A stretch of 32,000 bases of DNA from Pyrodictium occultum (GTDB taxonomy: Archaea > Thermoproteota > Thermoprotei_A > Sulfolobales > Pyrodictiaceae): NCBI RefSeq assembly GCF_001462395.1, contig NZ_LNTB01000001.1, positions 1,170,001-1,202,000 on the forward strand. The letters are read 5' to 3'. Shown piece after piece: positions 6,856-31,140 of the stretch; position 1 is the stretch's first letter, and each line of letters starts with the position of its first letter. The notes under the pieces are model-generated. The model ran no database searches. It saw only the letters and a program-made list of their open reading frames with translations, and was not told the origin of the DNA. A program made the translations under genes and the position numbers.

Positions 6856-6887
6856 CCATGCAGGTTATGAGCGGCGAGGATGTGCTG

Positions 6888-6965
6888 TGGCGGGCCCGCG
6901 GGGATTTGAACCCCGGACTACCGGCTCCGCAGGCCGGCGTCCTATCCTGGCTAGACTACGGGCCC
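6888..6965 (-). tRNA. tRNA-Arg (anticodon GCG), CCA encoded, no intron
   Basis: The reverse strand folds by hand as GGGCCCG UA GUCU AGCCAGGAUA GGAC G CCGGC CUGCGGA GCCGG UAGUC CGGGG UUCAAAU CCCCG CGGGCCC G CCA. That gives a 7-bp acceptor, 4-bp D stem, 5-bp anticodon stem, 5-bp T stem and a canonical T-loop. Confidence 0.9.
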
Positions 6966-7007
6966 GCCCGGGCCACTCCATCCATAGGCTCAAGGCGCTC
7001 CAGGCTC

Positions 7008-7017
7008 CTTTTAAACA
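7008..7017 (-). promoter_or_regulatory. TATA box (TGTTTAAAAG on minus strand), likely the tRNA-Arg promoter
   Basis: It is centred about 47 nt upstream of the mature tRNA 5' end, which implies a leader of about 20 nt. Confidence 0.4.
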
Positions 7018-7505
7018 TTACATGCAATTCTAAGGGACTCTGCGCGCGGCTTAGGTCACCCACCTTATACGGTGATACGTGGGAGCTGGATAGGGGGCGG
7101 TGCGTGGTTAGGCGCTCAAAGAGGCGTGGAGGGGAGCGCGACCTACTCGAGTTCCTAGCTGGTGGCGTAACCGGCGCCCGCAGGGCTAAGGGCCGAACCA
7201 CCGAGAGCGGGGATGGTACGGGCAGCGAGAGGGATGGTGCTAAGCCCCTCTGGGAGGGGAATACGGCCAGGAGGGCCGGGGTGGAGAGGCTATACGATAA
7301 CAGCCTCTACGAACTGTTATCGGAAATATCCTCATCTAGGAGACGCGGGTCTAGCCATCCAAGAGACGATGATCGGGAGGGGGCTGATCTCACTGGCGGC
7401 ATGAAGGCTCAGCCGCAGCTTGCTACGCACCAAGGGCTAACGACAGAGAAGGCCGTGGTGAACGTGGATGCAGAAACCTGGGCTGAGCAGCATGCATGGA
7501 GCACT

Positions 7506-13093: not shown

Positions 13094-13132
13094 CCGCCCC
13101 TCCATCCCTCAGAGGGAGCGGGCGGATACGCA

Positions 13133-13591
13133 ATGAGCGATACTAGGCGGAGGAGGGGTTTTGAAGCTGAGCGGGAGCTTGTGAGGAAGCTCTGGGGCAG
13201 CGGCTTCGCTGTCGTGCGCGCACCCGCTAGCGGCGCCCGTGTGAGGAAAGCCGTGTACCCGGATATAGTGGCCATGTTTAAAGGCAAGATATTCGCGCTT
13301 GAGGTTAAATACCGCAGTGACAACTCCCCCATCTACATCGAGAAGGAGCAGATACAGAAACTCCTAGAGTTTGCTCGCAGGGCAGGAGCCACACCCTTGA
13401 TAGCAGTTAAGAGGCCGCATCAGGGCTGGCGCCTAGTACCGCTAAGAGTGGCCAAGGAGACCTCCTCCGGGAGAATAAGGATAGACGAGGAAGTGCTCAA
13501 GAAGGCCATGAGCCTGGAAGAGTTCGTAACCTACGCTACGAATACTAGCCTGGAGAGCTTCATGAAGAGGGGCCAGGACTCAGCTGGGTAA
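13133..13591 (+). CDS. hjc: Holliday junction resolvase Hjc
   Basis: 152 aa. RRGFEAERELVRKLWGSGFAVVRAPASG ... PDIVAM ... ALEVKYR carries the E-x-D-x-E-x-K nuclease core arrangement of archaeal Hjc. Confidence 0.85.
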   Translation: MSDTRRRRGFEAERELVRKLWGSGFAVVRAPASGARVRKAVYPDIVAMFKGKIFALEVKYRSDNSPIYIEKEQIQKLLEFARRAGATPLIAVKRPHQGWRLVPLRVAKETSSGRIRIDEEVLKKAMSLEEFVTYATNTSLESFMKRGQDSAG

Positions 13592-13650
13592 GTTATCTTC
13601 ATCCCCCACATGCTTATCCGTCCGGGAGTAACTCATCACGCACCTATGCC
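13571..13650 (-). ncRNA. candidate C/D box sRNA
   Basis: The reverse strand reads GGCAUAGGUGC GUGAUGA(C) GUUACUCCCGGA(12 nt) CGGA(D'-like) UAAGCAUGUGGGGG AUGAAGA(C'-like) UAACUUACCCAG(12 nt) CUGA(D) GUCCUGGCC. Both guide spacers are exactly 12 nt. The flanks GGCAUAGGUGC/GUCCUGGCC can form a terminal stem of about 9 bp with two bulges. It lies 16 nt downstream of the stop of 13667..14740 and overlaps the last 21 nt of hjc antisense. Confidence 0.4.
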
Positions 13651-13666
13651 TAGCGGCCGGTGAGCC

Positions 13667-14740
13667 CTAGTCAGGCCTAAGCCTTATATCCCTGAACATA
13701 AGCTTGCCACGATGCCTCCATATCACACGCACTGTGTTCGTAGAGCCTGGCTTCAGCCTTAGATTGAGCGTCTTTGACTCGCCTGGCTTCAGCTCGCCCA
13801 CCACAGCCCTGTCGACCACGTTTCCTACCGCGAATACTGTCACGACAAGATTCTCGGCCCTATCGTCGCCGGCATTGGACACTTCGAGCTTTAAAGCATC
13901 AGCGCTAACACTGTAGCTGGCTTCTATCCTAGGCTCCGGTGCTTCGATGCGGTACACGAGTATCGAAGACACTAGCAGCTCCCTGGGATAGTACTCGCCG
14001 GTGCCTTTATGCTCAAGCCTAAGTTGTACTGCATCGCCTATATCCAGGGCAAACTCGTTTGTACCAACGCTTTTGCTTATCGTTGAAGTACCCTCACCGG
14101 TGCTAACTACAAGGCTCGCACTCGTGTGTGGTATGTAAGCCACTATTCTAGCCTTCATACCGCTGAGCCGCCCCGGTAGGCTCAGCTCAATGACATCGCC
14201 GGGTTTGAGTGATATCGCACCGCTCCAGAAATGGTAAAACGAGCGGACTGTATCATAGGATCCCATGAGCAGTAGACCTACATGGTCTACCACAAACTCT
14301 CTTACACCCATATACTCGATGCCCACAGTGTGATCCTTGCGTCGCTTCGAGTTGACTATGGGTGTGACATCGAACACCAGCTTACAGAAAAAGCCATCCC
14401 CCATTCTGGCACATATACTCGGCTTAAACTCTCTCGTAACTACAACACCGTTAAATAGCACCTTCCACCGGGGTATCTCCATGGTAGCGCTCCTTGCCCC
14501 AACCTCGAGCAGCGCCTTGTCCACAGTGGCGGATCTTATGCCATGCTCGAATGTTGTCGAGTAGGTAGTTGGGTGCCCGGAACCCCCTAACGTGACCTCG
14601 GGCAAGCTATTCTCATACACTAGATCCATGTTACCCTGGCCGCTAACGTATAGTTGCAGACCTCCATCACTCATAGAGTAGTCCCTCCTTCCAGCATTCT
14701 GGTGATAACGTTCCACTTTTAGTACATTACGTGCCTCCAT
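13667..14740 (-). CDS. hypothetical beta-rich protein, C-terminal CARDB-like repeat
   Basis: 357 aa with no obvious signal peptide or TM. The C-terminal LEVSNAGDDRAENLVVTVFAVGN...LKPGESKTLNLRLKP resembles CARDB/Ig-like domains. It lies 55 nt downstream of XPB on the same strand. Confidence 0.5.
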   Translation of the reverse strand: MEARNVLKVERYHQNAGRRDYSMSDGGLQLYVSGQGNMDLVYENSLPEVTLGGSGHPTTYSTTFEHGIRSATVDKALLEVGARSATMEIPRWKVLFNGVVVTREFKPSICARMGDGFFCKLVFDVTPIVNSKRRKDHTVGIEYMGVREFVVDHVGLLLMGSYDTVRSFYHFWSGAISLKPGDVIELSLPGRLSGMKARIVAYIPHTSASLVVSTGEGTSTISKSVGTNEFALDIGDAVQLRLEHKGTGEYYPRELLVSSILVYRIEAPEPRIEASYSVSADALKLEVSNAGDDRAENLVVTVFAVGNVVDRAVVGELKPGESKTLNLRLKPGSTNTVRVIWRHRGKLMFRDIRLRPD

Positions 14741-14795
14741 GGATCAAGAGCCTGGCAGGCCGGGCAAGGCTGGAACTACGACATGCTACTAGCGG

Positions 14796-16394
14796 TCAGA
14801 GGGAGCGTAGCAGCTTTCTTAGAGTAGCCTCCTCTTGAGTGCCTCGTATTGCTATATAGTAGAGTTTTGCAGATTTGCCGGGTTTCGGCCTGAGCAGTCT
14901 TCCAAGCCTCTGTATAAACTGTCTTCTTGAGGCAGTGCCGGAGAGCACCACGCCTACATTAGCATCAGGTATATCTATACCCTCATCCCCTACAGTTGTG
15001 AGTACAAGCGCTTTTAACCTATTATGCTTAAATAGCTCGAATATGATTTTCCTCTTGCTTTTCTCCGTCTTTCCAGTCACCACGGGGATTCCAAGCTCTT
15101 TTCCAACAGCCTGGGCCTGGTCAACATACTGCGTAAATACTATTATCTTCGAGCCTCTCATGTACTCAGCCTCTATAATGCTCCGAGCCTTCTCAAGCTT
15201 GGACTTTGACAGTGCTAGTATACGCCTAATCCGAGCCAATAGCTGCAGAGCTTTACGGGCCGACTCGTCGCCCATCGACGCAGCCTTTACGAGTTCCTCT
15301 ACCCTCCTACCCCTAGCTAGTACTAGGTAGTCCTTACGGAGCCTCTTGTACTCCTCCAGCTCCTTCCGGCTAAGATCCACAAGCACGGGAATTATTTCGA
15401 ATGATGCTATGTACCCAGCAGACATGAGGTCCTCGATAGAACGTTCATAGACTACTCCGCCTACGAGCCGGAAAAGCTCCTCATGTTTACCATCCTCCCG
15501 GTATGGTGTAGCCGATAAACCAAGCCTATAGGGTGCAAGCACGGATTCTGCAATAGCCCTAAACTTATCAGCAGGCAGGTGGTGAGCCTCATCAACTACG
15601 AGGAGAGAGAACTTATCAAATAGCAAGCCGATGTTACGGAAGGCGGACTGATAAGTAGCGATAGTAACAGGCTTCACGCTCTTCTCGTCAGAGTAGAAGG
15701 CACCGACAGACGATTTGGAGAGGGAGGTGAACTTTTCTATCTTATCCATCCACTCCACGAGCTGCTCACGGGTGTAAACTACTATGAGTGTAGGCACAGA
15801 GAGCCTGGCCATGGCCGCCAGCGCTACCACCGTTTTGCCGGCTCCAGTGGGCAACGCGATAACTCCACGATACCCGTTACGTATCCAAGTATCTACTGCC
15901 TCCTCCTGGTAGTCACGCAGTTTTCCCCTGAACGAGATAGGGTAGCTGCCTGTCCCGAGAAGCCCTGTACGGTCATGTATACTGAAGCCTTCATGCCGTA
16001 GCCTCTCAATTACATCAAGCAGCGCGTAAGGCTTCACTACGAATCCTCTAAGAGCCCTAGAGTATCTGACGACCCCTTTATCCCTAAATACGGCAAGATA
16101 ATCTGTTAGGAGGCGTTTTGATCGTAGAAGGAATCCCTTGGGGGATGCATATATCTCAACTATGCTTGACTCTTCAAGGAGCTTTTCAAGAACGCTGCGC
16201 GAGTCTTTGTCAAGCTCCGCGCCATAGGACTTCAAGGTGTCAATAATATCTGTTAGTTTGTCAACATTACTTATGTCCGTTGTTAGCTCGAACCAGCTAC
16301 AGCCATCACGTCTGCCTAGATAGGATGCCATGCTGGCTATTCGGCGGAAATCTTCTCTATCAAGCCATCGGCATATTCGGAACCGCAGATACAA
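14796..16394 (-). CDS. xpb: XPB/Rad25-type SF2 DNA repair helicase
   Basis: 532 aa. Motifs: LRDYQEEAV, motif I LPTGAGKT, motif II VVDEAHHL, motif III LGLSATPYREDG (includes the XPB RED motif), motif VI FIQRLGRLLR. An N-terminal damage-recognition-like domain is present. Confidence 0.9.
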   Translation of the reverse strand: MYLRFRICRWLDREDFRRIASMASYLGRRDGCSWFELTTDISNVDKLTDIIDTLKSYGAELDKDSRSVLEKLLEESSIVEIYASPKGFLLRSKRLLTDYLAVFRDKGVVRYSRALRGFVVKPYALLDVIERLRHEGFSIHDRTGLLGTGSYPISFRGKLRDYQEEAVDTWIRNGYRGVIALPTGAGKTVVALAAMARLSVPTLIVVYTREQLVEWMDKIEKFTSLSKSSVGAFYSDEKSVKPVTIATYQSAFRNIGLLFDKFSLLVVDEAHHLPADKFRAIAESVLAPYRLGLSATPYREDGKHEELFRLVGGVVYERSIEDLMSAGYIASFEIIPVLVDLSRKELEEYKRLRKDYLVLARGRRVEELVKAASMGDESARKALQLLARIRRILALSKSKLEKARSIIEAEYMRGSKIIVFTQYVDQAQAVGKELGIPVVTGKTEKSKRKIIFELFKHNRLKALVLTTVGDEGIDIPDANVGVVLSGTASRRQFIQRLGRLLRPKPGKSAKLYYIAIRGTQEEATLRKLLRSL

Positions 16395-16454
16395 ACTACC
16401 ACCGCATCGCTACCGCAGGTATAGCGGCCCGGAAGCCGTCATTGCCGATACTCG

Positions 16455-16973
16455 CTATGCAGCATTACGGCTCGGTAATACAGTAAATGCCTTATCCCGC
16501 AGCTCGCTGAATGAGGACACACACATATAGCCTATGCTTCCGGCATGCACGTCCCTCGCGACGCTCCTCTCAATAATCTTTGAAGGCTCGGAATCATTCT
16601 CGACTATTGCAATGAATATCTTGCTATCTCTATCAACGTATAATATGTCAGTAATGCTAGCCCTCTCCTCAAGTAGATCTATGGCCCGGCTTGGCGGTCT
16701 AGCGGCAATGAGCAACCCCTCTAGAATTATCCTCGGCGGCCCGTCTTCGCTGAGAGGCTCTAGCGGCATTAGAACTCGGAATACGCAGCCAACTAGTATG
16801 TCGGAGCCCTCGAGTCTCCCAAGGGTATATGCGATAACATATTTACAGTCATTTAGCTCTGCAAATGCGCCTATGTAAAGACCTCTATGTTTCTTCAGTA
16901 TGGCGCAGAAAGAGGCTCCCTGCGTGGGTTCCACATCATCTCTCTTCTTCTCAGTGTTTAAAACCTCGGTCAT
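16455..16973 (-). CDS. hypothetical protein (start uncertain; track ORF extends to 17030)
   Basis: Track ORF of 191 aa. The internal Met (MTEVLNTEKK) at 16973 removes the 22-nt overlap with the upstream gene. I recognised no motif. Confidence 0.4.
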   Translation of the reverse strand: MTEVLNTEKKRDDVEPTQGASFCAILKKHRGLYIGAFAELNDCKYVIAYTLGRLEGSDILVGCVFRVLMPLEPLSEDGPPRIILEGLLIAARPPSRAIDLLEERASITDILYVDRDSKIFIAIVENDSEPSKIIERSVARDVHAGSIGYMCVSSFSELRDKAFTVLPSRNAA

Positions 16974-17008
16974 CGCCGCCTCTTCGGTAGTACCGCACAC
17001 AGGCATAA

Positions 17009-17689
17009 CTACCCTACTATAAGTCCGCACAAGGCACCGCTATTCGCTTCACCCCCTCTACATATGGGCGAAGCTACATACACTTGCCCGAAGAGATCAA
17101 GGAGTCTCTCCCTTACATAGGGCATGTACCTTGCGGGAAGAGTTAGAGGCTGGATGAAGAGTACACTTAATCGACGTAGCCTGCCGACGCCCTCTATATT
17201 AAGACATAGAGTGAGTGAACTAATGTACTGGCCTATGGTCACGCATGTTGTAGCTCCGGGAGGCGCAAGGGGAGGGATGAACCCTATCATAAGGGGGATC
17301 GCTAGCTTCTGTGACACACGGAGCCCTATTACGGATGACAAATCGTTCACTACCAGGACGCGATCAAATATTTGCCCCGCTTCACGTACACGCTCCGTGA
17401 GCATAAACGCGAGGATCTCGAGAACTTCCATGTCCCCGACTATGTCGTCTATAGCTTCCGACGAGATTATTCTAGCTAGGTACCTCTTCACGTTAGTATC
17501 GCCCGTGAACAACTTGATTATTAGCTCCGCATGCTTCATACTAGGCAGGGTGTGGCCACGCAAATACCTGCTTATCATAGATGGTGGTATTGAGAGCTTG
17601 CTGCTCAGCTCCCTGTAGGTGTAGAAGCGGTGCAGAAACCGGAGCATGCTTATAGATATGGTTCTCCTCGCCAACTCGTCAATCCTCAT
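17009..17689 (-). CDS. putative regulator: N-terminal HTH plus degenerate phosphoribosyltransferase-like domain
   Basis: I prefer the start at MRIDELARR (ATG 17689), because the upstream 46 codons are Cys/His/Trp-rich. YRELSSKLSIPPSMISRYLRG is an XRE-like HTH. FDRVLVVNDLSSVIGLRVSQKLAIPL resembles the PRTase hood/first strand region, but the PRPP loop is degenerate. Confidence 0.45.
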   Translation of the reverse strand: MRIDELARRTISISMLRFLHRFYTYRELSSKLSIPPSMISRYLRGHTLPSMKHAELIIKLFTGDTNVKRYLARIISSEAIDDIVGDMEVLEILAFMLTERVREAGQIFDRVLVVNDLSSVIGLRVSQKLAIPLMIGFIPPLAPPGATTCVTIGQYISSLTLCLNIEGVGRLRRLSVLFIQPLTLPARYMPYVRERLLDLFGQVYVASPICRGGEANSGALCGLIVG

Positions 17690-17856
17690 AGTGTTAGCCC
17701 TCCCCAGATAATGTTGCCAGTCAGTGCCATGGCAGCATGTGTTGTACGTCGCCTGGCAGTGGAGGTGTGAAGCGAGTATGCTAAATATTAACGTTCCTCG
17801 GGAGTATGTAGAAATACTAGGCCACACTCACAAGCACTTATGGAGAGGGGGCTGCG

Positions 17857-18729
17857 GTGTCCTCCCAGGCAAGGATTCCTCCAGAGGTCAAAGCGCGTAT
17901 AGAGGCTTTCAAGAAGATACGCGAGCAGGAGAAGAAAGTAGAAGAGAATATGAAAAAGATAAAGTACAAGATAGCAGTATTGAGCGGTAAGGGTGGCGTC
18001 GGGAAGTCCTTTATCACAGCGAGTCTCGCATTCGCTATGAGCTATCTAGGGCGCAAGGTAGGTGTTCTAGATGCTGATATATACGGGCCGTCAATACCCA
18101 AGATGATGGGTGTGCAGGGCCAGTCGGTTATGGCTACATCGGATGGAAGAATTATACCAGTTACAGCCCCTCTAGGCGTCAAGGTAATCTCCATAGGCCT
18201 GCTCCTACCGGAGGAGGATGTGCCCGTTATCTGGCGCGGCCCGCTCTCAACCTCGGCCATCCGGGAGATGCTAGCCTATACTGACTGGAGTGAGCTCGAC
18301 TACCTCTTCATAGACCTGCCTCCGGGCACTGGGGACGAGCAGCTCACTATAGCTCAGTTGATAAAGGATCTTACCGGCACGATAATAGTCACCATACCCT
18401 CTGACGTGTCTAGGGTTGTCGTAGCGAAGGCTGTTAATTTCGCACGTAAGCTGAACGTCCCAATAGTAGGCATTATAGAGAATATGAGCTACTTCGAGTG
18501 TCCTGATGGATCTAAACACTACATATTTGGAGAGGGCGTGGCTAAGAAGATAGCGGAGAAGTATGGAATAAGATTCCTAGGCGAGGTACCTATAGACCCT
18601 CGCATATCCCGTGCCAATGACGCGGGGGAGCCTTTCTTCGTAAAGTACCCGGACAGCAAGGCTTCTAAGGTTATACTGGAGCTGGCTAAGACCATAGCAG
18701 AGATCGTAGAACAGGGAACCGGTGGGTAG
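17857..18729 (+). CDS. mrp: Mrp/NBP35/ApbC-family Fe-S cluster carrier ATPase
   Basis: 290 aa with a GTG start. It has the deviant Walker A KIAVLSGKGGVGKS, DLPPGTGD, and IVGIIENMSYFECPDGSKHYIFG. Confidence 0.9.
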   Translation: MSSQARIPPEVKARIEAFKKIREQEKKVEENMKKIKYKIAVLSGKGGVGKSFITASLAFAMSYLGRKVGVLDADIYGPSIPKMMGVQGQSVMATSDGRIIPVTAPLGVKVISIGLLLPEEDVPVIWRGPLSTSAIREMLAYTDWSELDYLFIDLPPGTGDEQLTIAQLIKDLTGTIIVTIPSDVSRVVVAKAVNFARKLNVPIVGIIENMSYFECPDGSKHYIFGEGVAKKIAEKYGIRFLGEVPIDPRISRANDAGEPFFVKYPDSKASKVILELAKTIAEIVEQGTGG

Positions 18730-22215: not shown

Positions 22216-24093
22216 TCACCGAGCAATATTTACTAGCAGTGGCGCGTCTAACCCTACATCGCCTACAACCACGTAGCCTTTCGGCAGCCTCGCTATTGTG
22301 TAAGCGAGCGCCTCTGGGGAGTCGTCGGCAGAGTTCTTCGAGATGGCCTCTGCCGCGAATTTTGCCTCTGCAGGATCTGTATGCCTAAGGCATATCACTG
22401 TACCCATGTTGGCCGCCACTGTCTTATCTATCTCGCTCGCTCTCTGGGTTACAAGAACTAGCATTACCCCATACTTCCTAAGCTCAGCAGCTATGAGGGC
22501 TACTATGTTACGTTTTCTCGTCTTGCGCGCGAAGAGGTGTGCCTCGTCTATAAGGAGTATGTAGCGCAGCTTGTCCGAGGGGCCTAGCCTCTTAACCATG
22601 TAGTACAGTTTGTAAAGTAAGGTGTCCGTGTATAGTATCATTTGCTCCCTCGTAGCCAGCCGGGATAGGTCAAAGACTATGGCTGCTGTCCTGCTGCCAG
22701 GCAGGGGGAACGGCACACTGCTCCCTCCGAATGCCGTGGCTAGGGACGACAGGTACATAGCTACTATGCCGGCCCTGGGCTCCTTCTTGGCCATACCCTC
22801 TAGTATCTTCACTACGTCGGTAATTGTTGGCAGCTTCCTGTTCCACGTTGAGGGATCGTCCTCCCTTATCCCGGCATTCTCGTAGGCGAGCAGGATGGCT
22901 TCTTCGAGTATTCTAGACTGTATCGGGCCCAGCTGGTAGAGCTCTGCTATGAGTTCTACAAGCTCCAATGCCCTCTCTCGGGGGCTTTGCCCTGTGAAGT
23001 CAAGGGGGTTGGGTGCCTCCTTGGAGGCGTCTACTATCCTCACGCCGGGTACCCCGCCGAGCATTGTGGAGTATTCTCCATGGGGGTCTATGACCAGCAG
23101 TATTGGGCTCTTGGCTTCCTCCAGTATTGATCTTGCTAGCCGGATTGCTGTGGACGACTTGCCCGCCCCCGTCGTTCCTGTTATCAGCACGTGAGGGTTC
23201 TCTCGTGTTGTGGCTGTGGCCAGGCGGTAGTCCACCCTCGGGTAGCTCGGCGCCCACCAGGCGCCTGTTATCGGCTGCGTCTGTGTTATAGTGTAGCGTA
23301 TGGTGGGGGCATAAACCATCACGGCTTCAAGGACGCCTAGCCGGTAGCCGGTGCGCTCGGCGAGCCTTAGTGTAGTGGGTAGTGCTTCGACGGGGAGTAC
23401 TGATACCATTGCCACTAGCAGCAGTGGTTGTGGCAAGGCGAGCGCGGCGACGAGCACCGGGAGGAGGAGGCCGGCTGTTAACGTGTCTAACGAGGATACA
23501 AGGGACACCGGTACTGCGAGGACCGCTGATGAGAGAAGCAGTGCCTGGTAGAGGCTCTGCCCGATGTAGTTTACCGGGTTCACCATCTCCTCTACAGGGA
23601 AGGCCAGCAGGGATGAAGTTATCAGTATGATGGCTGCATTTCTGCGTGCCGTGCAGAGGCTGTATTCCAGCAGGCTCGGCTTAATAGCCTGTAGGAGGTT
23701 CCTTGCCGCCACATCTATGTATGGCCTTGAGCGTATCAGCGATACAAGTCTCGCTATGAATACAGCTCCCGAGGCTACTAGAGCCAAGAGTAGGGGTATG
23801 TCTGAAGCAAAGCCTCTCCAGAGAGCCTCGATGCCGCCTTGGAGTGTGCCGGCCTGGCTCGTCCCGGGTTTTGAAATGCTTGATGCGAGCGAGTAGATGC
23901 CTATAGCCGCGTTGTGCAGCAGCGCGATTACCGCTATGGCGAGGGATCTTGAGAGGAGTGCAGCTACTACAGCTATGAGCGTCATCGATGATGTATAGCC
24001 TGTAGAGCCGCCCCAGGCGCTGAGGAGCGTGGAGACCAGCGAAAGTAATACTAGCGCTAGCACCCATGAACGGACTCTGGCGGTGGCGTCCAA
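22216..24093 (-). CDS. polytopic-membrane-anchored HerA/VirB4-like P-loop ATPase
   Basis: 625 aa with a TTG start (GTG 24063 possible). Residues about 10-250 contain at least six long hydrophobic stretches. Then come HVLITGTTGAGKSS (Walker A), LLVIDPHGEY, ILLIDEAHLF (Walker B) and LVTQRASEIDKTV...ICLR, the HerA/DUF87-VirB4 pattern. Confidence 0.8.
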   Translation of the reverse strand: MDATARVRSWVLALVLLSLVSTLLSAWGGSTGYTSSMTLIAVVAALLSRSLAIAVIALLHNAAIGIYSLASSISKPGTSQAGTLQGGIEALWRGFASDIPLLLALVASGAVFIARLVSLIRSRPYIDVAARNLLQAIKPSLLEYSLCTARRNAAIILITSSLLAFPVEEMVNPVNYIGQSLYQALLLSSAVLAVPVSLVSSLDTLTAGLLLPVLVAALALPQPLLLVAMVSVLPVEALPTTLRLAERTGYRLGVLEAVMVYAPTIRYTITQTQPITGAWWAPSYPRVDYRLATATTRENPHVLITGTTGAGKSSTAIRLARSILEEAKSPILLVIDPHGEYSTMLGGVPGVRIVDASKEAPNPLDFTGQSPRERALELVELIAELYQLGPIQSRILEEAILLAYENAGIREDDPSTWNRKLPTITDVVKILEGMAKKEPRAGIVAMYLSSLATAFGGSSVPFPLPGSRTAAIVFDLSRLATREQMILYTDTLLYKLYYMVKRLGPSDKLRYILLIDEAHLFARKTRKRNIVALIAAELRKYGVMLVLVTQRASEIDKTVAANMGTVICLRHTDPAEAKFAAEAISKNSADDSPEALAYTIARLPKGYVVVGDVGLDAPLLVNIAR

Positions 24094-24155: not shown

Positions 24156-27017
24156 ATGACCAGGCGTAGTGATGGAAGAATCCGGGGCGCCTTCCGGCTG
24201 CTGCACCCCGTTCTCCAGAAGGTGCTAGCCCGCTATGGGTACATAAGGCTGACCGAGATTCAGGAGAAGGTGATACCGGAGGTTCTGCGCGGCAACCATG
24301 TGCTAGCGATAGCCCCCACGGGTAGCGGGAAGACTGAGGCAGCCCTCTTCCCGGTTTTCTCGAGCCTTATAGGTGCCCGGCCTGGCAGCGTGTACGCTGT
24401 CTACATAACCCCCTTGCGCAGCCTTAACCGCGACATATTCAAGCGCATGAAGTCTATAGCGGCAGCTATCGGGCTCGAGCTAGTGGTACGTCACGGCGAC
24501 AGCACGGCTAGCGAGAAGAAGAGGTTCCTCGAGAACCCTCCGCACATAATGGTTACCACTCCGGAGTCCTTCTACTTCCTCCTGAGTGTCGATCGATTCC
24601 GCCAGAGTATAAGGGGGCTCAAATACATAATAGTTGACGAAGCACATGAGCTTGTCTCGGATAAGCGTGGTGCAGAGCTATCCCTGGCCATAGAGAGAGT
24701 GGCTAGACTCTATGCTAGGTCAAGGCTTCAGATAATAGGTCTCTCCGCTACTGTCAGCGACCCCTTCACCATTGCAAGGCTTCTCGCGGGCGATAGGTAT
24801 GTACGCATCGTAGAGGCCGACGGCGCTAAGCGATACCATGTAACGGTTACGGCACCGCCGGCCTCTACGAGTGGTGATCCACAGAGAGAGCTTGCCTCAA
24901 GGATAGCGATAATAAAGAGGATAATAGAGGGGACTGGAGGCAATGTTCTGGTGTTCACAAACACGCGAGACACTGCCGAGGTACTAGGTGCCCTGCTCAA
25001 GCAGGCTCTCGGCGAGAATGCAGTAGAGGTTCATCACGGTAGTCTAAGCCGTGAGAGGAGGGTTGATGTTGAGCAGAGGCTCCGAAGCGGTGAAGTGAAG
25101 GCTGTTGTGGCCACGTCAAGCCTCGAGCTGGGTATAGATGTTGGCGCGGTAAGCAGGGTTATCCAGTACATGTCTCCGAGGCAGGTTGTGAAGCTTGTTC
25201 AGCGCGTAGGCAGGGCGGGGCACCGAGTGTCGGATGTGTCTAGGGGCGTTATAGTAGCTGCGGGCAATGTGTTTGACGTGCTTGAGTCTGCGGTTATAGC
25301 TGCAAGAGCTATGAGAGGTAATTTGGAGAAGTTTTGTTACCCAAGGAAACCCTATGACGTCCTTGTGCATCAGATTGCGGGGATGCTCGTAGAGCTGGGC
25401 GAGACAAGCATAAACACCATATATAATGTTGTGTCCGCTAGCGGCTATTATAGGGAGCTCAGCCTTGACGAGCTCCGTCAAGTGTTAAGCTACATGGAGG
25501 CTGCAGGTCTCGCAAGGGTTAGAGGGCATAGGGTCAGACTCGGCCCCGCCACGAAGAGCTACTACTTCACGGTCACAATGATACCGGATACCAAACAGTA
25601 CAATGTATACGAGGTGGGCACTGGCAGGAAGATCGGTGTGCTCGACGAAGAGTTTGTAGCAACCCTAGAGCCTGGCTCGAAGTTCGTCCTGGGCGGGCAG
25701 ACCTGGGAGGTGGTAAATGTAGAGGAGGCTGGAGTAAGAGTTAGGCAGACGAAGGAGGAAAGGCTGATCCCGCCTGCATGGGAGGGCGACCTAATCCCGG
25801 TAGAGTATAGCGTCGCACGTGAGATAGGTAGCGTGCTACGGCGCTACGAGAGGCTGGGAAGCAGTGTACTAGGCCTATACCCGCTTGACCCTAATGCTAG
25901 GCGTCTTGTCGACGAAACGCTGTCTAGGCACATTTCGAGAGGGCTGCCGCTGCCGAGCGACAGAAGGGTGGTAATAGAGCATTATGGAGACACCTTCATA
26001 ATCTATAGTATGCTTGGGAGCAGGGGGAACAAGGCACTGGAGTACGTTATATCAGCCTATATATCGGAGATTAAGGGCTACTCCCCAGTAACTGCAAGCA
26101 CACCCTACATTGTCGCAGTCCGGCTTGCATCCCGCGAGCACGCCGGCTTTATGGAGAAGGTGCTTCGTAGCATAGCCAGCCTGCCCCGGGACGAGGTGGA
26201 GAAGCTCCTGCATAAGGCGGTTCTGGGCAGCAGGCTATTCCAGTGGATTATGCTGCACGTTGCTGTGAGAAGCGGTGCCGTGCGGAGAAGTAGGGACATA
26301 GACATCAAGCGGGTTAAGTCGGTTATACAGAAGCTCAGGGACACCCTGCTAGGTATAGAGGCGTATCGTGAAATAGAGACACGGAAAATAGACTCCAGGA
26401 TACTCTTAAAGTTTCTCGAGGATCTTAGAAGGGGCCGGATAGAGCTAGCCGTAGTGAGCCTTAGGACACCTTCTCCTCTCGCAGAGCATGCTTTAGCCGA
26501 GGCCAGGCTTGGAGACCGTGTAGTATCGAATAGCATACCCTCAACAGTGCTTGTCGAAGCCGTTAAGCGTAGGATAGAGTCAAAGGAGATCCTGCTACTC
26601 TGCCTAATGTGCGGTAATGTTTGGAGAAGGCAGCTAAAGCACCTGGAGAATGAGGTGAAATGTCCTCGCTGTGCCGCCCGCCTCGTGTACCCAGCCCTCT
26701 CCCAGGACCGCATAAACATGGCTAGGAGGCTTCTTGAAAAGAGGAGGAGAGGATCTCGCCTCTCCCCCCAGGAGAAGAAGGCGTTGAACGAGGTCATGGA
26801 GTCTGCCAATCTAGTACTTAGCTATGGCAAAAAGGCGGTGGAAGCGCTTGTGTCAACGGGTATAGGGGCCCAGACTGCTAGACGGGTGCTCCAGAAGCTA
26901 GTGTTTGGCGAGGATGCATTCTACCGTGCCATAGTAGAGGCGGAGGCGAACTATCACCGGTATAAGCATCGGCTCGAGAAAGGCTCGAGAAAAGGCAGGG
27001 CTAGCGGCGCCATGTAA
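24156..27017 (+). CDS. lhr: Lhr-type large SF2 (DEAH) helicase with C-terminal zinc ribbon
   Basis: 953 aa. Motifs: LTEIQEKVIP, motif I APTGSGKTEAALFPV, motif II IVDEAHEL, motif III GLSATV, motif VI QRVGRAGH. A long winged-helix/domain-4-like extension follows, then CLMCGNVW...CPRCAARL. Confidence 0.85.
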   Translation: MTRRSDGRIRGAFRLLHPVLQKVLARYGYIRLTEIQEKVIPEVLRGNHVLAIAPTGSGKTEAALFPVFSSLIGARPGSVYAVYITPLRSLNRDIFKRMKSIAAAIGLELVVRHGDSTASEKKRFLENPPHIMVTTPESFYFLLSVDRFRQSIRGLKYIIVDEAHELVSDKRGAELSLAIERVARLYARSRLQIIGLSATVSDPFTIARLLAGDRYVRIVEADGAKRYHVTVTAPPASTSGDPQRELASRIAIIKRIIEGTGGNVLVFTNTRDTAEVLGALLKQALGENAVEVHHGSLSRERRVDVEQRLRSGEVKAVVATSSLELGIDVGAVSRVIQYMSPRQVVKLVQRVGRAGHRVSDVSRGVIVAAGNVFDVLESAVIAARAMRGNLEKFCYPRKPYDVLVHQIAGMLVELGETSINTIYNVVSASGYYRELSLDELRQVLSYMEAAGLARVRGHRVRLGPATKSYYFTVTMIPDTKQYNVYEVGTGRKIGVLDEEFVATLEPGSKFVLGGQTWEVVNVEEAGVRVRQTKEERLIPPAWEGDLIPVEYSVAREIGSVLRRYERLGSSVLGLYPLDPNARRLVDETLSRHISRGLPLPSDRRVVIEHYGDTFIIYSMLGSRGNKALEYVISAYISEIKGYSPVTASTPYIVAVRLASREHAGFMEKVLRSIASLPRDEVEKLLHKAVLGSRLFQWIMLHVAVRSGAVRRSRDIDIKRVKSVIQKLRDTLLGIEAYREIETRKIDSRILLKFLEDLRRGRIELAVVSLRTPSPLAEHALAEARLGDRVVSNSIPSTVLVEAVKRRIESKEILLLCLMCGNVWRRQLKHLENEVKCPRCAARLVYPALSQDRINMARRLLEKRRRGSRLSPQEKKALNEVMESANLVLSYGKKAVEALVSTGIGAQTARRVLQKLVFGEDAFYRAIVEAEANYHRYKHRLEKGSRKGRASGAM

Positions 27018-27076
27018 TACTTGCGGCCGCCCCCGGCTCAATACGCTTCCTAAAGGCGGGGCATGTGTAGGGGCGC

Positions 27077-27352
27077 ATGAACAACATAGTGGAGTTTATC
27101 AACACACTTACAATAAAAGTGATAAGTATAGCATGGGGCCTCTTTCTGCTGACATGGAGCATAGGCTGGCTCCTCAGGGGAGCGCCGATACCCCTCCTAA
27201 GAGTCAAGAGGGTAGGTCAAGACTTCGTGGAGGACGCTGTTTGGGCGGCCTTCTGGCTAGCCCTGGGTTCCTCAATATTCGCCCTCGTATCCCACATAGT
27301 GAGCTCTATCGCGTCACCTCCCCCAGTACCCTTCAACGCCACCGCCGGCTAA
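27077..27352 (+). CDS. cedA1: VirB2-like two-helix pilin candidate (CedA1-like)
   Basis: 91 aa. Hydrophobic helix KVISIAWGLFLLTWSIGWLL, basic loop RGAPIPLLRVKRVGQD, hydrophobic helix AVWAAFWLALGSSIFALVSHIV, and a Pro-rich tail. The call rests on architecture and gene order, not on sequence identity to a known pilin. Confidence 0.6.
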   Translation: MNNIVEFINTLTIKVISIAWGLFLLTWSIGWLLRGAPIPLLRVKRVGQDFVEDAVWAAFWLALGSSIFALVSHIVSSIASPPPVPFNATAG

Positions 27353-27365
27353 GAGGGACCCTCCT

Positions 27366-28823
27366 TTGATACTGACGGGCTACTTCCTCCTAATAACAGC
27401 CCAGCTCGCAGTACTGACATACTATCTGGGAGTACTGTTGTACATGTTACCCATACCAGTGCGGGGGGTCAAGCGCTGGGCTCCAACGCTGATACAGGAC
27501 AGCCTCTGGGCAAGCATATTGATGACACTATACTCGGCACTGCTCAGCTTCTCCGACAGCCTTGCCAGGCTTAGCGGCCACACCCTAAGCGAGATAATAG
27601 CATATATGGAGTTAACGCTCGAGAAATTCATACTAATGAACTATGCATTGCAGCTGCTTGTCGGTGTAGCCTCAATAGCCCATAGCCTCGTAGGCAGAAT
27701 CTTTAGCATAATCACATTTCCCTTCTCACTAGTGATCCAGGGCATAGTAACGACTGCAGCGACGGTAGTTGTGCTAGCAAGCATAATCTCAGCGGCTAAG
27801 GCTAAGCTCACAGCTCTCGCAATAGCACTAATATCTATACCATTCCGTATAGGTAGGAACGCTGGCGCCTCGCTCCTATCATTTATCCTTGTAAGCAACA
27901 TAATGCTCCCATTCCTACCTCAATGGATCAACTTGATATCTAGCAGTGTTGGCTCTGAGCAAACACTAGTGAGATCCAAGGCAGTGGAAGTCCTGCTAAA
28001 CAATACAGAGCCGGTACATGTGTGGGGGGAGGTAAAAGACGCCTATAACTACCGTCCACCTGTAGGCTTAGTCAAGTTTATAAACAGCAATGGCGCAGTG
28101 TTCCAGTTCATAATCCATGTAGACGGCTGCTACTATGTCACCAAGCCGCTCAAGATGCTGCCCAGTGGAAGCTACAGAGTAGAGGTAGAGTACCTATCTG
28201 TGCTTCTCAACTCTAGCAAAGCTATCGTGAATCTTCCACGAGACGCTAGGCTGACCTACGAGCTGGACGAGGCAAAGTACCGCATGGATATAACCGTTGA
28301 GAGGGATGCAGTATTCATCGAACCCATAGGCCTTATGATAGTCAAGGGATGCAATATAGAAAATGTGTACCAGTCCCTTAAGATGCTAAAGCTTAAGTGC
28401 ACACCGCTATCTGGCAACGTTAGGATCGACATATACTCCTTAGGCGCGAACGATGTCAAGCTGCAACCTAATACTCTAAACGGCGTCTACAACTACTATG
28501 TAAACATAAGCGAGAAGCCTTGGAGGGGCGTAAGAGTCTACGTAAAGACGATAACTCTAGAAATGGCTAATGCCTCAACAGCCCTCTCGCTAGAATTCTA
28601 TAAGAATATCGACTATCATGAGCTTTACCAGCTGAATGATCTCGAGCTCTCGGAAGGCATGATTTATCCTGAGCGCTCGCTGGAAGATATTGCGATTGAT
28701 ATAATAGTTAATGGGATAACTTTCCCTCTTGCGGTTTTCTCCTACCTAACAGTTATGTCGATGGTGTCTTTGAGCCTTGCGAGGGTGATCGGTGCCTCGT
28801 ATCCTCGTGTGATATTTGACTAA
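27366..28823 (+). CDS. cedA: polytopic membrane protein with large beta-rich ectodomain (CedA-like / VirB6-like)
   Basis: 485 aa with a TTG start. About 6-7 hydrophobic helices lie in residues 1-195. Residues about 200-440 are a hydrophilic beta-rich segment, followed by a final TM (ITFPLAVFSYLTVMSMVSLSL). It starts 13 nt after the pilin-like gene. Confidence 0.6.
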   Translation: MILTGYFLLITAQLAVLTYYLGVLLYMLPIPVRGVKRWAPTLIQDSLWASILMTLYSALLSFSDSLARLSGHTLSEIIAYMELTLEKFILMNYALQLLVGVASIAHSLVGRIFSIITFPFSLVIQGIVTTAATVVVLASIISAAKAKLTALAIALISIPFRIGRNAGASLLSFILVSNIMLPFLPQWINLISSSVGSEQTLVRSKAVEVLLNNTEPVHVWGEVKDAYNYRPPVGLVKFINSNGAVFQFIIHVDGCYYVTKPLKMLPSGSYRVEVEYLSVLLNSSKAIVNLPRDARLTYELDEAKYRMDITVERDAVFIEPIGLMIVKGCNIENVYQSLKMLKLKCTPLSGNVRIDIYSLGANDVKLQPNTLNGVYNYYVNISEKPWRGVRVYVKTITLEMANASTALSLEFYKNIDYHELYQLNDLELSEGMIYPERSLEDIAIDIIVNGITFPLAVFSYLTVMSMVSLSLARVIGASYPRVIFD

Positions 28824-29001
28824 TACCGTGCTGGTGGTGAATAAATTGAAGTTGGCGGTAACGTTTAGAAGATCCTTGTACATAGCTCTCGGCATCTCCC
28901 TTTATGGAGCCATGTATGGTATGCTATCAAAAAATATGTATCTATTTGTAATATCGGTAATAAATATAGTTATATTTATGCTTATAAGAAGTAGTTGGTG
29001 A
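28816..29001 (+). CDS. cedA2: 61-aa two-TM protein (CedA2-like / VirB3-sized)
   Basis: SLYIALGISLYGAMYGML and MYLFVISVINIVIFMLI are two hydrophobic helices. It overlaps the preceding gene by 8 nt and the next by 7 nt (track coordinates). The DNA here is very AT-rich. Confidence 0.45.
   Translation: MTNTVLVVNKLKLAVTFRRSLYIALGISLYGAMYGMLSKNMYLFVISVINIVIFMLIRSSW
28961..28988 (+). promoter_or_regulatory. possible internal promoter (TAAATATAGTTATATTTATGCTTATAAG) for the ATPase gene
   Basis: A cluster of TATA-like boxes 20-45 nt upstream of ATG 29007, which would give a leaderless ATPase transcript. Confidence 0.3.
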
Positions 29002-29006
29002 TAGCT

Positions 29007-30458
29007 ATGATAATTAGCAGAATTATATCTAGTATCACTAATCATATATCTAAACTACGTAGGAGCAGGAGTTGGGCCAGCGGGATAGCGAGGGTGGGAG
29101 GGTTATGCGTAACAAACATCGGCTCTGGTATCAGTGGCGTTGTTGCTGAAGTTAAGGGTGACGAGCTCTGTTTTAAAAAGCTCTTCAGCGACAGGCTCAG
29201 CCTTATTGATAGCAGGATATGCGGCATCTTCATACTATATAGGCGTGTTAGGAGCAGCTACGCAGCTAGGCTGCTTGAATCTAAAATACTAACTTATGAG
29301 GTAGAATTGGAAAGGAATCCCGAAAATATGCGTGCACGGGTGAAACTGGATACGCTACGAGAAATCTATAGGACGATAGTAGAGCGCGATGAGCCTGTTG
29401 AGCCCTCCCTCCATATAATGGTTTGCGGGGGGCCAGAAACCATAGTTGACGTCTACCGCGGTGTCGCAGACTCCCTAGCGCTGTTAGGGTGTAAGCTCCG
29501 CCCTAAATGTGTTAGCGTAAATTTTTTGAAAAGTTTCAATAAGAGGGTTATACAGCCTCGCGGCCTCATTCTGGGCAAGTTCTGGGAGCTAGTGGATTAC
29601 TTAGACTCTATGACACGGTATGTTGAGTCAGCGTTTGTGCCTATAGGCTATGACATCCTCCTGGGACGTATTGTAGGCATCCCGCTCTGGGATGACACTG
29701 GGGCGAGGCATACAGTTGTTGTAGGGCCTACCGGAAGGGGCAAGACGAGTCTTGCAGCACTGGTAGCTGTGCTCTCTTCTCTGCTGCATAACGCTACAGT
29801 GGTGGCGGTGGATCCCAAGGGTGATCTATGGAGCCTGTTATCCTGGAGCGGCCTAGCCGTCCATGTGGAGGTTGAGAGTAGCAGAGATGCAGCCTATCTT
29901 GCTTCTAGGATTCTTCGCGCCCTCGGCGAGAGCGTAGGAGGTATTGTGGTTGTGGACATACGGTACCTAAGTGAGGGGGAGAAATACCTGCATCTCGAAA
30001 CAGCTTTGTCAGACGCCTTCTCGCTACTGCAAGGCGTTGGTAGAAGATCGCTCCTCATAGTCGACGAGTTCTGGCGGGTTAAGGAGAGCTATGTGGTCAG
30101 GAAGATCGTGAGGGAGGGGAGGAGCAGCGGTATTAGCCTCATGCTGGTCTCCCAGCAGCCGGAGGATTTCGGCCCCGATGTATGGAGTAACTCAAGCAAC
30201 TCGGTGGTGTTCGGCTCTCACGACGAAACATATCTCGAGAGCATTAAGAGGCTTAGCGGGATGGCCTCTCAGGATGTCTCCTTTATCCGCCGTCTAGGGG
30301 TTGGAGAGGCGCTTGTGCAGTATCATGGCTCGCGGAGGGCTCTCCCGGTGAGAGTCCTCCAGGCACCGATAACAGTTAAGAATCCGGGTGTAGGCGGGAC
30401 GGGCAGCTGGGGTAGGGTACGTTATGGGCAAGCGGCTGATAGTGCAGCGCAGAGGTAG
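29007..30458 (+). CDS. cedB: VirB4/HerA-like secretion ATPase (CedB-like); alternative TTG start at 28995
   Basis: About 483 aa. An N-terminal domain of about 230 aa is followed by HTVVVGPTGRGKTS (Walker A), VVAVDPKGDL, LLIVDEFWRV (Walker B) and MLVSQQPEDF...VVFG. These motifs are paralogous to the membrane-fused ATPase at 22216..24093. Confidence 0.75.
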   Translation: MIISRIISSITNHISKLRRSRSWASGIARVGGLCVTNIGSGISGVVAEVKGDELCFKKLFSDRLSLIDSRICGIFILYRRVRSSYAARLLESKILTYEVELERNPENMRARVKLDTLREIYRTIVERDEPVEPSLHIMVCGGPETIVDVYRGVADSLALLGCKLRPKCVSVNFLKSFNKRVIQPRGLILGKFWELVDYLDSMTRYVESAFVPIGYDILLGRIVGIPLWDDTGARHTVVVGPTGRGKTSLAALVAVLSSLLHNATVVAVDPKGDLWSLLSWSGLAVHVEVESSRDAAYLASRILRALGESVGGIVVVDIRYLSEGEKYLHLETALSDAFSLLQGVGRRSLLIVDEFWRVKESYVVRKIVREGRSSGISLMLVSQQPEDFGPDVWSNSSNSVVFGSHDETYLESIKRLSGMASQDVSFIRRLGVGEALVQYHGSRRALPVRVLQAPITVKNPGVGGTGSWGRVRYGQAADSAAQR

Positions 30459-31140
30459 GGGGTCGCCGCTATATCGTAGCAGGCCCTGGCTCCATCCGGC
30501 TCCAGCCAGGTATCCGCCACTCGTGCCGGTGACGCTCCGCGGTCGTGTAGTGGAGCTAGTGCATGATCCTGGCCGCTGGGTTCCTCTAGCTCATGTGGTT
30601 CTTGAGAATGGCGAGGAGTTCTGGATACCCGCTGCTGAGGGCATGTATGTGGGCCAGATAATAGAGGTGGGCCCGGATGCCAAGCCCTCCAACGGCAACA
30701 TCCTCCCTATTGGCAAGATACCGGAGGGCACTCAAGTATACAATATAGAGGTAAGGCCTGGTGATGGCGGGAAGCTGGCCCGCTCCTCCGGCGCTTACGG
30801 CATCGTCCTCGGGCGTAGCGGTAATAAGACGATAGTCCAGCTGCCAAGCGGCAAGGTTAAGGAGATCCCTAATGACGCCAGGGCTACTGTAGGCATAGCT
30901 GCTGGGGGCGGCCGCCCCGAGAAGCCGCTGCTCAAGGCTGGTGCAGCCTACTACAAGTGGAGCGCGAAGCCGCACGTATGGCCACGCGTACGCGGCGTGG
31001 CAATGAACGCTGTGGACCATCCCCATGGCGGCGGTAGCCACCAGAGCCCAAGCTTCCCAACCACCGTATCGAGGAACGCTCCTCCAGGCAGGAAGGTTGG
31101 CCACATAGCTGCACGCTCCACGGGCCGCAGGAAGGGGTAG
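30424..31140 (+). CDS. rpl2: 50S ribosomal protein L2 (uL2)
   Basis: 238 aa. MGKRLIVQRRGRGSPLYRS..., GNILPIGKIPEGTQVYNIE, and VRGVAMNAVDHPHGGG, the signature of uL2. Confidence 0.95.
   Translation: MGKRLIVQRRGRGSPLYRSRPWLHPAPARYPPLVPVTLRGRVVELVHDPGRWVPLAHVVLENGEEFWIPAAEGMYVGQIIEVGPDAKPSNGNILPIGKIPEGTQVYNIEVRPGDGGKLARSSGAYGIVLGRSGNKTIVQLPSGKVKEIPNDARATVGIAAGGGRPEKPLLKAGAAYYKWSAKPHVWPRVRGVAMNAVDHPHGGGSHQSPSFPTTVSRNAPPGRKVGHIAARSTGRRKG

Follow-up and report, generated by a model that had tools for sequence, protein, structure and literature searches.

The 32,000-nucleotide stretch of the Pyrodictium occultum chromosome considered here (contig NZ_LNTB01000001.1, positions 1,170,001 to 1,202,000; referred to as the window) very probably carries the chromosomal ced operon of this archaeon, a set of genes for a domesticated DNA-import apparatus that resembles type IV secretion systems (T4SSs). 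The four genes of the operon encode orthologues of CedA1, CedA, CedA2 and CedB or proteins that take their places in the gene order. The Ced system was defined in Sulfolobus (van Wolferen et al. 2016, as cited in later work). The structure of the Ced pilus has been solved in Aeropyrum pernix (PMC9905601), and the components CedD and CedE were added in 2024-2025 (PMC11868833; bioRxiv 10.1101/2024.09.27.615169). In Sulfolobales, DNA import depends on the Ced genes, and in A. pernix pili are built from CedA1 (PMC9905601; PMC11868833; bioRxiv 10.1101/2024.09.27.615169). That the Pyrodictium family has a Ced system is already known from Table S1 of Recalde et al. 2024, which catalogues Pyrfu_1644-1647 and Hbut_1291/1292, from a preprint on cannulae, which reports CedA1 homologues in every Pyrodictiaceae genome, and from the RefSeq name of the P. 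occultum CedA1 protein. The supplement of the mLife paper (PMC11868833) holds no Pyrodictium entries.

Organization of the ced operon

A six-frame list of open reading frames (ORFs) gives the following four genes, with product lengths in amino acids (aa).

27077-27352, forward strand: cedA1, 91 aa, ATG start
27366-28823, forward strand: cedA, long form, 485 aa, TTG start
28816-29001, forward strand: small ORF between cedA and cedB, 61 aa, TTG start
29007-30458 (ATG start, 483 aa) or 28995-30458 (TTG start, 487 aa), forward strand: cedB

The first two genes are separated by a 13-nt gap (27353-27365), cedA and the small ORF overlap by 8 nt (28816-28823), and the small ORF and cedB overlap by 7 nt (28995-29001) when cedB is started at the TTG codon. 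An earlier note on the window, made from the sequence alone, had described four packed genes on one strand with this spacing and had taken them for the Ced gene set; the coordinates agree, and the identification is borne out by a CedA1 equivalog match, a match of CedA to its family model and the rank of CedB as top family match for the ATPase. The 91-aa and 485-aa products were assigned to P. occultum by exact-sequence look-up.

A second scan of a genome collection, made with a CedA alignment, gave 16 loci; a scan with CedB alone gave zero confirmed relatives. The order cedA1-cedA-small ORF-cedB is kept in the Desulfurococcales relatives examined. Since all four ORFs have conserved counterparts in the same order across the related loci examined, their array is not a product of chance.

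CedA1, the pilin subunit

The 91-aa product is, to judge from its sequence, CedA1, a VirB2-like pilin subunit in the form of a two-helix hairpin. It scores 126.7 bits against the NCBIfam equivalog model for CedA1 (NF041797) and so passes the cut-off of 100 bits, and it matches the A. pernix pilin solved by electron cryo-microscopy (PDB 8DFU) at E=3.7e-25, sharing 39 of 73 residues with it (53% identity). Its hydropathy profile has hydrophobic segments at about residues 7-33 and 53-79 with the basic loop RGAPIPLLRVKRVG between them, the layout from which a hairpin pilin had been proposed in the earlier note. A single N-glycosylation sequon lies in the C-terminal tail. The exact sequence is that of KSW12351/WP_058371033, which is named 'DNA import protein CedA1 [Pyrodictium occultum]' in RefSeq and entered as a hypothetical protein in GenBank. 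The copy of Pfam that was scanned holds no model for CedA1 or CedA, although precomputed tables do list PF27251 'CedA1'.

Long-form CedA

The 485-aa product (exact match KSW12352, named 'hypothetical protein') is, to judge from its family and model matches, a long-form CedA. Residues 1-216 align with positions 1-218 of the 259-position NCBIfam model NF041796 (E=4.4e-40, 137.9 bits). This model reflects the short form of CedA, whereas the P. occultum protein has an extracellular insertion of about 225 residues before its last transmembrane (TM) helix. Its predicted domains are as follows.

Residues 1-210: polytopic membrane domain with about six TM helices
Residues ~211-438: beta insertion
Residues 439-475: last TM helix

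An AlphaFold2 model based on 23 homologues (mean predicted local distance difference test score, pLDDT, 84.8) has helices in residues 1-210, a low-confidence linker, beta strands in residues 219-413 and a long terminal helix at residues 439-475, and hydropathy likewise gives several hydrophobic segments near the N terminus and one near the C terminus. Model and hydropathy thus agree with the N-terminal TM helices, beta-rich ectodomain and C-terminal TM helix that had been described before. In the model, the strands read as two tandem beta-sandwich domains that would lie outside the cell. They are placed there because of the topology of the model, the positions of the four N-X-S/T sequons of the protein, all of which fall within the beta region, and the charges of its loops, as the basic loops alternate in the manner that a positive-inside topology with the beta region outside predicts. 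A Foldseek search of the PDB with the CedA model gave only non-significant immunoglobulin (Ig)-like matches (BcpA pilin at E=3.8e-3, and antibody Fabs), and a CedA profile matched the first beta-sandwich (window 27996-28220, about residues 205-279) to the thread subunit of S. acidocaldarius (PDB 8RZL/7PNB) at an E of 0.026, which is not significant. As these Ig-like and thread matches are weak, the ectodomain is named 'tandem beta-sandwich' and nothing more specific. The insertion is the usual form of CedA in Desulfurococcales and not a quirk of P. occultum, since 24 of the 25 CedA homologues matched are 450-508 aa long; the remaining one (P0027, 289 aa) is a short form.

The first hairpin of CedA is paralogous to CedA1: the CedA1 model matches residues 10-62, 8DFU matches residues 3-66, and a profile of the CedA family matches 8DFU at E=9.6e-8. 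CedA proteins with a CedA1-like N-terminal hairpin have already been reported (Beltran et al. 2023, PMC9905601).

The small membrane protein in the cedA2 position

The 61-aa ORF is the positional counterpart of cedA2, a fit that rests on position and hydropathy. CedA2 is listed at this position in Pyrolobus (P. fumarii), Staphylothermus, Thermogladius and Thermosphaera (Recalde et al. 2024, bioRxiv 10.1101/2024.09.27.615169, Table S1), and all 18 loci examined for such an ORF have one, of 51-69 aa and with two hydrophobic segments, between cedA and cedB. In three of the related loci (L021, L022 and L023), a small ORF at this place is also predicted by gene callers. In P. occultum, a strong hydrophobic segment at residues 41-59 is preceded by a weaker one at about residues 20-38, which fits the two-TM layout claimed earlier. 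The product shares 50% identity (22 of 44 residues) with that of the uncalled equivalent in a second Pyrodictium contig (L020), a figure close to the 57% found between CedA or CedB and proteins of related Pyrodictium-like contigs (P0004 and P0029). Searches of the 61-aa product against Pfam and NCBIfam gave zero matches. Its exact sequence is absent from the protein collection, and the GenBank tags run consecutively from CF15_06320 to CF15_06325, so that the gene is uncalled.

CedB

The ATPase encoded by the last gene is a CedB-like member of the VirB4/HerA clade, shortened in comparison with other CedB proteins. The motifs GPTGRGKTS, LLIVDEFW and SQQPEDF (Walker A, Walker B and SQQP) are present in the translation, as had been noted before. 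Its best NCBIfam match is the CedB model NF041017 (E=3e-20, 72.4 bits), in a match that includes the N-terminal domain, and positional orthologues from two related loci (L011 and L015) match the CedB model over its full length at 217 and 146 bits. When an AlphaFold2 model of the protein (pLDDT 69.4) was compared with known structures using Foldseek, TrwK/VirB4 of R388 came first (8rtb_A at E=1.6e-13; also 7O41) and HerA (4d2i) came next at 2.5e-11.

Relatives of 468-471 aa align with CedB from the ATG codon at 29007, and this codon is therefore taken as the start of cedB, which gives a protein of 483 aa and turns the 7-nt overlap with the small ORF into a 5-nt gap. The CedB protein in GenBank comprises the C-terminal 310 aa only and leaves out about 173 conserved N-terminal residues (window 28995-29528). 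The expectation that automated annotation would serve the locus poorly was well founded: GenBank has CedA1 and CedA as hypothetical proteins, the 61-aa ORF uncalled and CedB truncated.

Genomic context of the operon

Hyperthermus butylicus and several Pyrodictiaceae contigs keep the gene order PCNA, orf126, Rpo13, a divergently oriented membrane ATPase, lhr, cedA1, cedA, small ORF, cedB, rpl2, rps19 and a methyltransferase. The flanks formed by lhr and by rpl2-rps19 are constant across genera in which CedA is only 31-57% identical, which indicates that the ced locus is chromosomal and vertically inherited. These core-gene flanks in conserved order suit the domesticated chromosomal apparatus proposed in the earlier note. 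That note had also seen no relaxase, integrase, plasmid replication or partition gene, and Pfam or NCBIfam scans of the ORFs of 100 aa or more in the window likewise turned up no gene for an integrase, a relaxase, replication, partition or a VirD4-type coupling protein.

Upstream motif and junction with rpl2

Two features flank the operon.

27016-27026, forward strand: degenerate element resembling the DNA-damage-response element (DDRE), aatACTTGCgg, which overlaps the stop codon of lhr and lies 61 nt before the cedA1 start
30424-31140, forward strand: rpl2, encoding 50S ribosomal protein L2 (NCBIfam PRK09612, 360.7 bits)

The Orc1-2 damage-response element of Sulfolobales is ANTTTC, with the consensus AATAGTTTCRG in S. 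islandicus (PMC6061795). Of 22 related loci, 15 have ANTTTC ahead of cedA1, usually as atAGTTTCgc (the loci named as bearing it are L001, L002, L004-L007, L013-L015, L017, L018 and L021-L023); its background rate is 0.0011 per nt. In about half of the 15 loci it lies at -60 to -62, and in the rest at -32 to -103, positions that depend in part on the start call. The equivalent site in the second Pyrodictium contig (L020) is AGTTAC, with one mismatch, and five loci that lack ANTTTC show a TATA-like box at about -35 instead. Judged by title and abstract, the other papers found to contain the motif string concern Sulfolobales or are unrelated, and the one checked for other orders does not extend the element to them. 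A scan for bacterial sigma-70 promoters and terminators returned counts equal to those in shuffled sequence and is not applicable to an archaeon.

At the other end of the operon, the last 35 nt of cedB (30424-30458) are also the first 35 nt of rpl2. At this junction two relatives have overlaps of 8 nt and 29 nt, and in two others the genes are 34 nt and 52 nt apart. Unless rpl2 has a promoter within cedB, the two genes must share a transcript. No further ribosomal-protein genes adjoin rpl2 and rps19 in the window or in the relatives checked, and a methyltransferase gene follows the pair in four loci (L001, L002, L020 and L021).

Comparison with other Ced systems and with conjugation systems

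A. pernix (CedA1 APE_0220a, CedA APE_0220, CedB APE_0219), like P. occultum a member of the Desulfurococcales, has the same chromosomal cedA1-cedA-cedB cluster. The two pilins, with 53% identity over 73 residues, share the same basic loop and both lack a signal peptide, and in both organisms CedA begins with a hairpin homologous to CedA1. They differ in the small two-TM ORF between cedA and cedB of P. occultum, as A. pernix is listed without CedA2 (Table S1). Pyrolobus fumarii has the identical four-gene order CedA1-CedA-CedA2-CedB (Pyrfu_1644-1647). The published Hyperthermus butylicus set Hbut_1291/1292 agrees with this order too. From the membrane ATPase to rps19 inclusive, the gene order of the Hyperthermus locus (L001) is that of the window, with identities of 39% for CedA, 73% for CedA1 and 36% for CedB. 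Recalde Table S1 omits P. occultum, as well as the membrane ATPase and Lhr that adjoin ced.

In Sulfolobales (S. acidocaldarius Saci_0567-0569, Saci_0748 for CedB and Saci_0667 for CedD; CedE in S. islandicus), the Ced system has like components and a like presumed role: a pilin, a VirB6-like channel, a small two-TM protein and a VirB4/HerA-clade ATPase. The ANTTTC-type promoter element of Sulfolobales is also found upstream of cedA1 in most Desulfurococcales relatives. CedA of the Sulfolobales type is short (the 259-position model) and has no counterpart of the extracellular insertion of P. occultum, and in that order cedB lies apart from cedA and its product is listed with a TM domain, whereas cedB of P. 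occultum is in the operon and encodes a protein with no TM helix. Ups pili are not listed for any Desulfurococcales in Recalde Table S1.

Among bacterial systems, the T4SS of R388 (TrwK/VirB4, TrwI/VirB6, TrwM/VirB3 and VirB2; PDB 7O41, 8RTB) supplies the best structural matches of the CedB model, through TrwK/VirB4, and the CedA1 pilin family is structurally homologous to VirB2/TraA pili (PMC9905601). Unlike an R388-type system, the P. occultum locus yielded no genes for a relaxase, VirD4, VirB8-11 or an outer-membrane core, and it is, as its context indicates, chromosomal and vertically inherited. The Ced systems that have been studied import DNA, the opposite direction to bacterial conjugative T4SSs.

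Proposed mechanism and alternative explanations

The structural work in A. pernix and the genetics of Sulfolobales suggest how the P. occultum apparatus might operate. CedA1, as an unprocessed hairpin, would be extracted from the membrane and polymerise with lipids into a thin, hollow, conjugative-like pilus. CedA, which is VirB6-like, would form a membrane platform or channel, with its first hairpin mimicking the pilin, and the long form would project its two beta-sandwich domains outside the cell, as a stalk through the pseudo-periplasm and surface layer (S-layer) or as a contact to a partner cell. The small two-TM protein could be a minor pilin or a VirB3-like adaptor. CedB, a soluble hexameric ATPase, would dock on the cytoplasmic face and power both pilus assembly and DNA uptake, and the imported DNA would feed repair by homologous recombination.

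Several findings weigh against identifying the locus as a Ced system or against carrying over what is known of that system from Sulfolobales. CedA falls below the equivalog cut-off of its model (137.9 versus 330 bits) and CedB far below that of its own (72.4 versus 700 bits), so both proteins are divergent. CedB has no TM helix by hydropathy, in contrast to Sulfolobales CedB proteins, which are listed with an N-terminal TM helix, and CedB proteins of the Pyrodictium clade have internal deletions relative to longer relatives. Foldseek with the CedA model as a whole, in which matches to the beta domains head the list, returned no VirB6/TrwI, nor did the CedA profile against PDB sequences; the link between CedA and VirB6 was made with HHpred (PMC9905601). 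The role offered above for the CedA ectodomain, an S-layer-spanning stalk or a surface for contact with a partner cell, is speculation, and DNA import in Pyrodictiaceae is extrapolated from Sulfolobales. The DDRE-like hexamer upstream of P. occultum cedA1, ACTTGC, has one mismatch to ANTTTC, and the overlap of cedB with rpl2 implies that regulation may differ from that of the ultraviolet (UV)-induced system of Sulfolobus.

These points can be set against three other explanations of the locus. The one with the most to be said for it, though still improbable, is that the CedA1 pilus of Pyrodictiaceae serves mainly in adhesion or cell-cell contact, or in export and donation of DNA, and not in import. 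Import has been demonstrated in Sulfolobales only, CedA1 (and CedE) play a part in export as well in S. islandicus (PMC11868833), A. pernix pili were observed without UV induction (PMC9905601), the long CedA has Ig-like domains on its surface side of a kind typical for adhesive structures, and the DDRE is degenerate in P. occultum. On the other hand, the core import components CedA1, CedA and CedB are all retained together with the Walker motifs intact, most relatives keep the DDRE-like motif ahead of cedA1, and DNA repair genes abound nearby (lhr, Hjc, XPB, PCNA and PolB). It is far less probable that the locus is an integrated conjugative element, or the remnant of one, whose plasmid- or element-borne T4SS exports its own DNA. 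The homology of the components to VirB2/VirB4-type conjugation proteins would fit such an origin, as would the lower G+C content of the operon, which is 0.43-0.49 in segments of cedA and 0.34 in the small ORF (0.40 at third codon positions), compared with 0.55-0.62 in lhr and rpl2 (0.62 in rpl2 itself) and an average of 0.54 for the whole window. The lhr and rpl2-rps19 context shared across genera with divergent CedA proteins tells against it, as do the overlap of cedB with a ribosomal protein gene and the large ORFs of the window, among which no gene for integration, mobilisation, replication, partition or coupling was seen; synteny has already largely refuted this explanation.

There is next to no chance that the ATPase is a generic HerA-type repair helicase located beside unrelated membrane-protein genes. 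The best PDB matches of the protein by sequence are indeed HerA proteins (4d2i, E=1.4e-6), and Pfam assigns it HerA_C and DUF87 domains. However, the two HerA equivalog models give it only 30.7 and 24.9 bits, where the cut-offs are 970 and 800, the CedB model ranks top with its N-terminal domain included, and TrwK/VirB4 is the best structural match. Moreover, neither nurA, mre11 nor rad50 is found in the window, and in all related loci the gene keeps its place after cedA and the small ORF. Family ranking and synteny have thus refuted the helicase explanation, and the assignment of the ATPase to the VirB4/HerA clade, apart from HerA/NurA-type repair proteins, stands as it was first made. A chromosomal ced operon is by far the most probable identity of the locus.

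The adjoining membrane ATPase and lhr

Two genes lie just upstream of the operon.

22216-24093, reverse strand: ATPase of the HerA clade with a polytopic membrane domain at its N terminus, 625 aa, with Pfam DUF87, HerA_C and TrwB_AAD_bind
24156-27017, forward strand: lhr, Lhr-type DEAD/DEAH helicase, 953 aa (PRK13767, E=9.7e-139; ligase-associated DEXH model, 6e-115)

A spacer of 59 nt separates lhr from cedA1, which it immediately precedes, and this placement is conserved in Pyrodictiaceae. The gene is also found near ced in Staphylothermus-like and Desulfurococcaceae loci (L014, L015 and L023).

The 625-aa ATPase has about 5-6 hydrophobic segments within residues 6-242, and by sequence its closest matches in the PDB are DptH and HerA; VirB4 is matched at 7e-17. 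Genes of its family (about 600-650 aa) occur within 0.1-5 kb of cedA1 in 12 relatives across Desulfurococcales, with varying intervening genes. Six of the family members are located as follows.

L001, 824-2749
L011, 3758-5602
L020, 1730-3550
L021, 1967-3793
L022, 9001-10845
L023, 9001-10902

In L022 the ATPase gene is directly divergent from cedA1, in L011 a PAPS-reductase gene alone intervenes, and in L023 lhr and a PAPS-reductase/4Fe-4S gene intervene. That the linkage of the ATPase to ced survives such changes in the intervening genes suggests a functional tie, but it could also reflect conservation of the whole block from PCNA to ced. The 625-aa protein is therefore a candidate additional Ced-associated motor, a role that its linkage suggests.

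A word-based search with the 625-aa ATPase found close relatives only, and a profile search of the family gave 92 cluster representatives at E≤1e-30. Ten sampled clusters carried uninformative source names, one of them the evidently wrong label EcfA2, and no sampled member reached the equivalog score for CedD, CedB or HerA. Independent retrieval of two distant members (L022 and L023) showed these, too, to be neighbours of ced operons. The possibility that the protein is CedD was considered and rejected as unproven. Against the CedD model NF053655 it scores 55 bits (cut-off 600), over the ATPase domain only, and its orthologues score 80-92 bits; across the family, the best NCBIfam matches are low, at 46-107 bits, and split among CedD, CedB and HerA. 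The published CedD genes of Pyrodictiaceae are at unlinked loci (Pyrfu_0100 and Hbut_0386 in Recalde Table S1), and the 625-aa ATPase is distinct from these. Homology of its membrane domain to CedA was likewise rejected (hhalign probability 0.3%). No CedE paralogue is visible in the window.

It is possible, though doubtful, that the ced operon of Desulfurococcales is the core of a larger, ancestrally linked and undescribed module that comprises a third motor, Lhr, a surface-exposed CedA and conserved damage control. If so, the membrane ATPase, distinct from both CedB and the published CedD, would be an FtsK-like DNA pump and perhaps the motor still lacking for export or donation, and Lhr would process the transferred strand. 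The beta-sandwiches of CedA would replace the partner recognition provided by Ups pili in Sulfolobales, and ANTTTC would be an Orc1-2-type damage switch shared across orders that has decayed in Pyrodictium, where the operon would be transcriptionally fused to rpl2.

A protein with a PAPS-reductase domain (649-663 aa) is encoded divergently beside cedA1 in several loci outside the Pyrodictiaceae, where it replaces Lhr or stands next to it. Three copies were located, two of which (L011 and L015) also have a 4Fe-4S dicluster domain.

L011, 5607-7598, reverse strand
L015, 3649-5640, reverse strand
L023, 4159-6108, forward strand

Implications for annotation and further study

The identification made in the earlier note holds, but that note missed the previous cataloguing of Pyrodictiaceae loci, the RefSeq name of CedA1, the membrane ATPase and Lhr neighbours, and the overlap of cedB with rpl2. 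Three features of the locus may be new, namely the linkage of the membrane ATPase, the ANTTTC upstream of cedA1 in relatives, and the cedB-rpl2 overlap. For P. occultum, the annotation can be corrected by naming CedA, adding the 61-aa gene and extending CedB by about 173 residues. Leads include the membership of the membrane ATPase and Lhr in the system, the role of the CedA ectodomain in organisms without Ups pili, and damage control through ANTTTC beyond Sulfolobales. Pyrodictium makes cannulae, and a complete Ced gene set helps to separate DNA transfer mediated by Ced from any that is mediated by cannulae.

Other genes of the window

The other large ORFs of the window encode phosphoenolpyruvate (PEP) synthase, MarC, a family-B DNA polymerase, Hjc, XPB helicase, a NUBPL-type ATPase (PF10609), a DUF72 protein and PCNA. 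The PF10609 match (17857-18729, 321 bits), which bears a ParA name and lies 9 kb away, is described as a NUBPL iron-transfer NTPase; it was read as an Fe-S carrier and rejected as a partition or VirC1-like protein. A cluster of genes of DNA-repair type (11534-17827) lies upstream of the ced region and contains the following genes.

11534-13093: PIN-domain protein, with a weak sub-threshold match to a T2SSE-type ATPase
13133-13591: Hjc resolvase
14796-16394, reverse strand: XPB/Rad25 helicase
17009-17827, reverse strand: helix-turn-helix (HTH) protein

In the family-B DNA polymerase (6789-10145, forward strand, 1118 aa), about 390 N-terminal residues have no assigned domain, and the recognised exonuclease domain begins only at residue 392.

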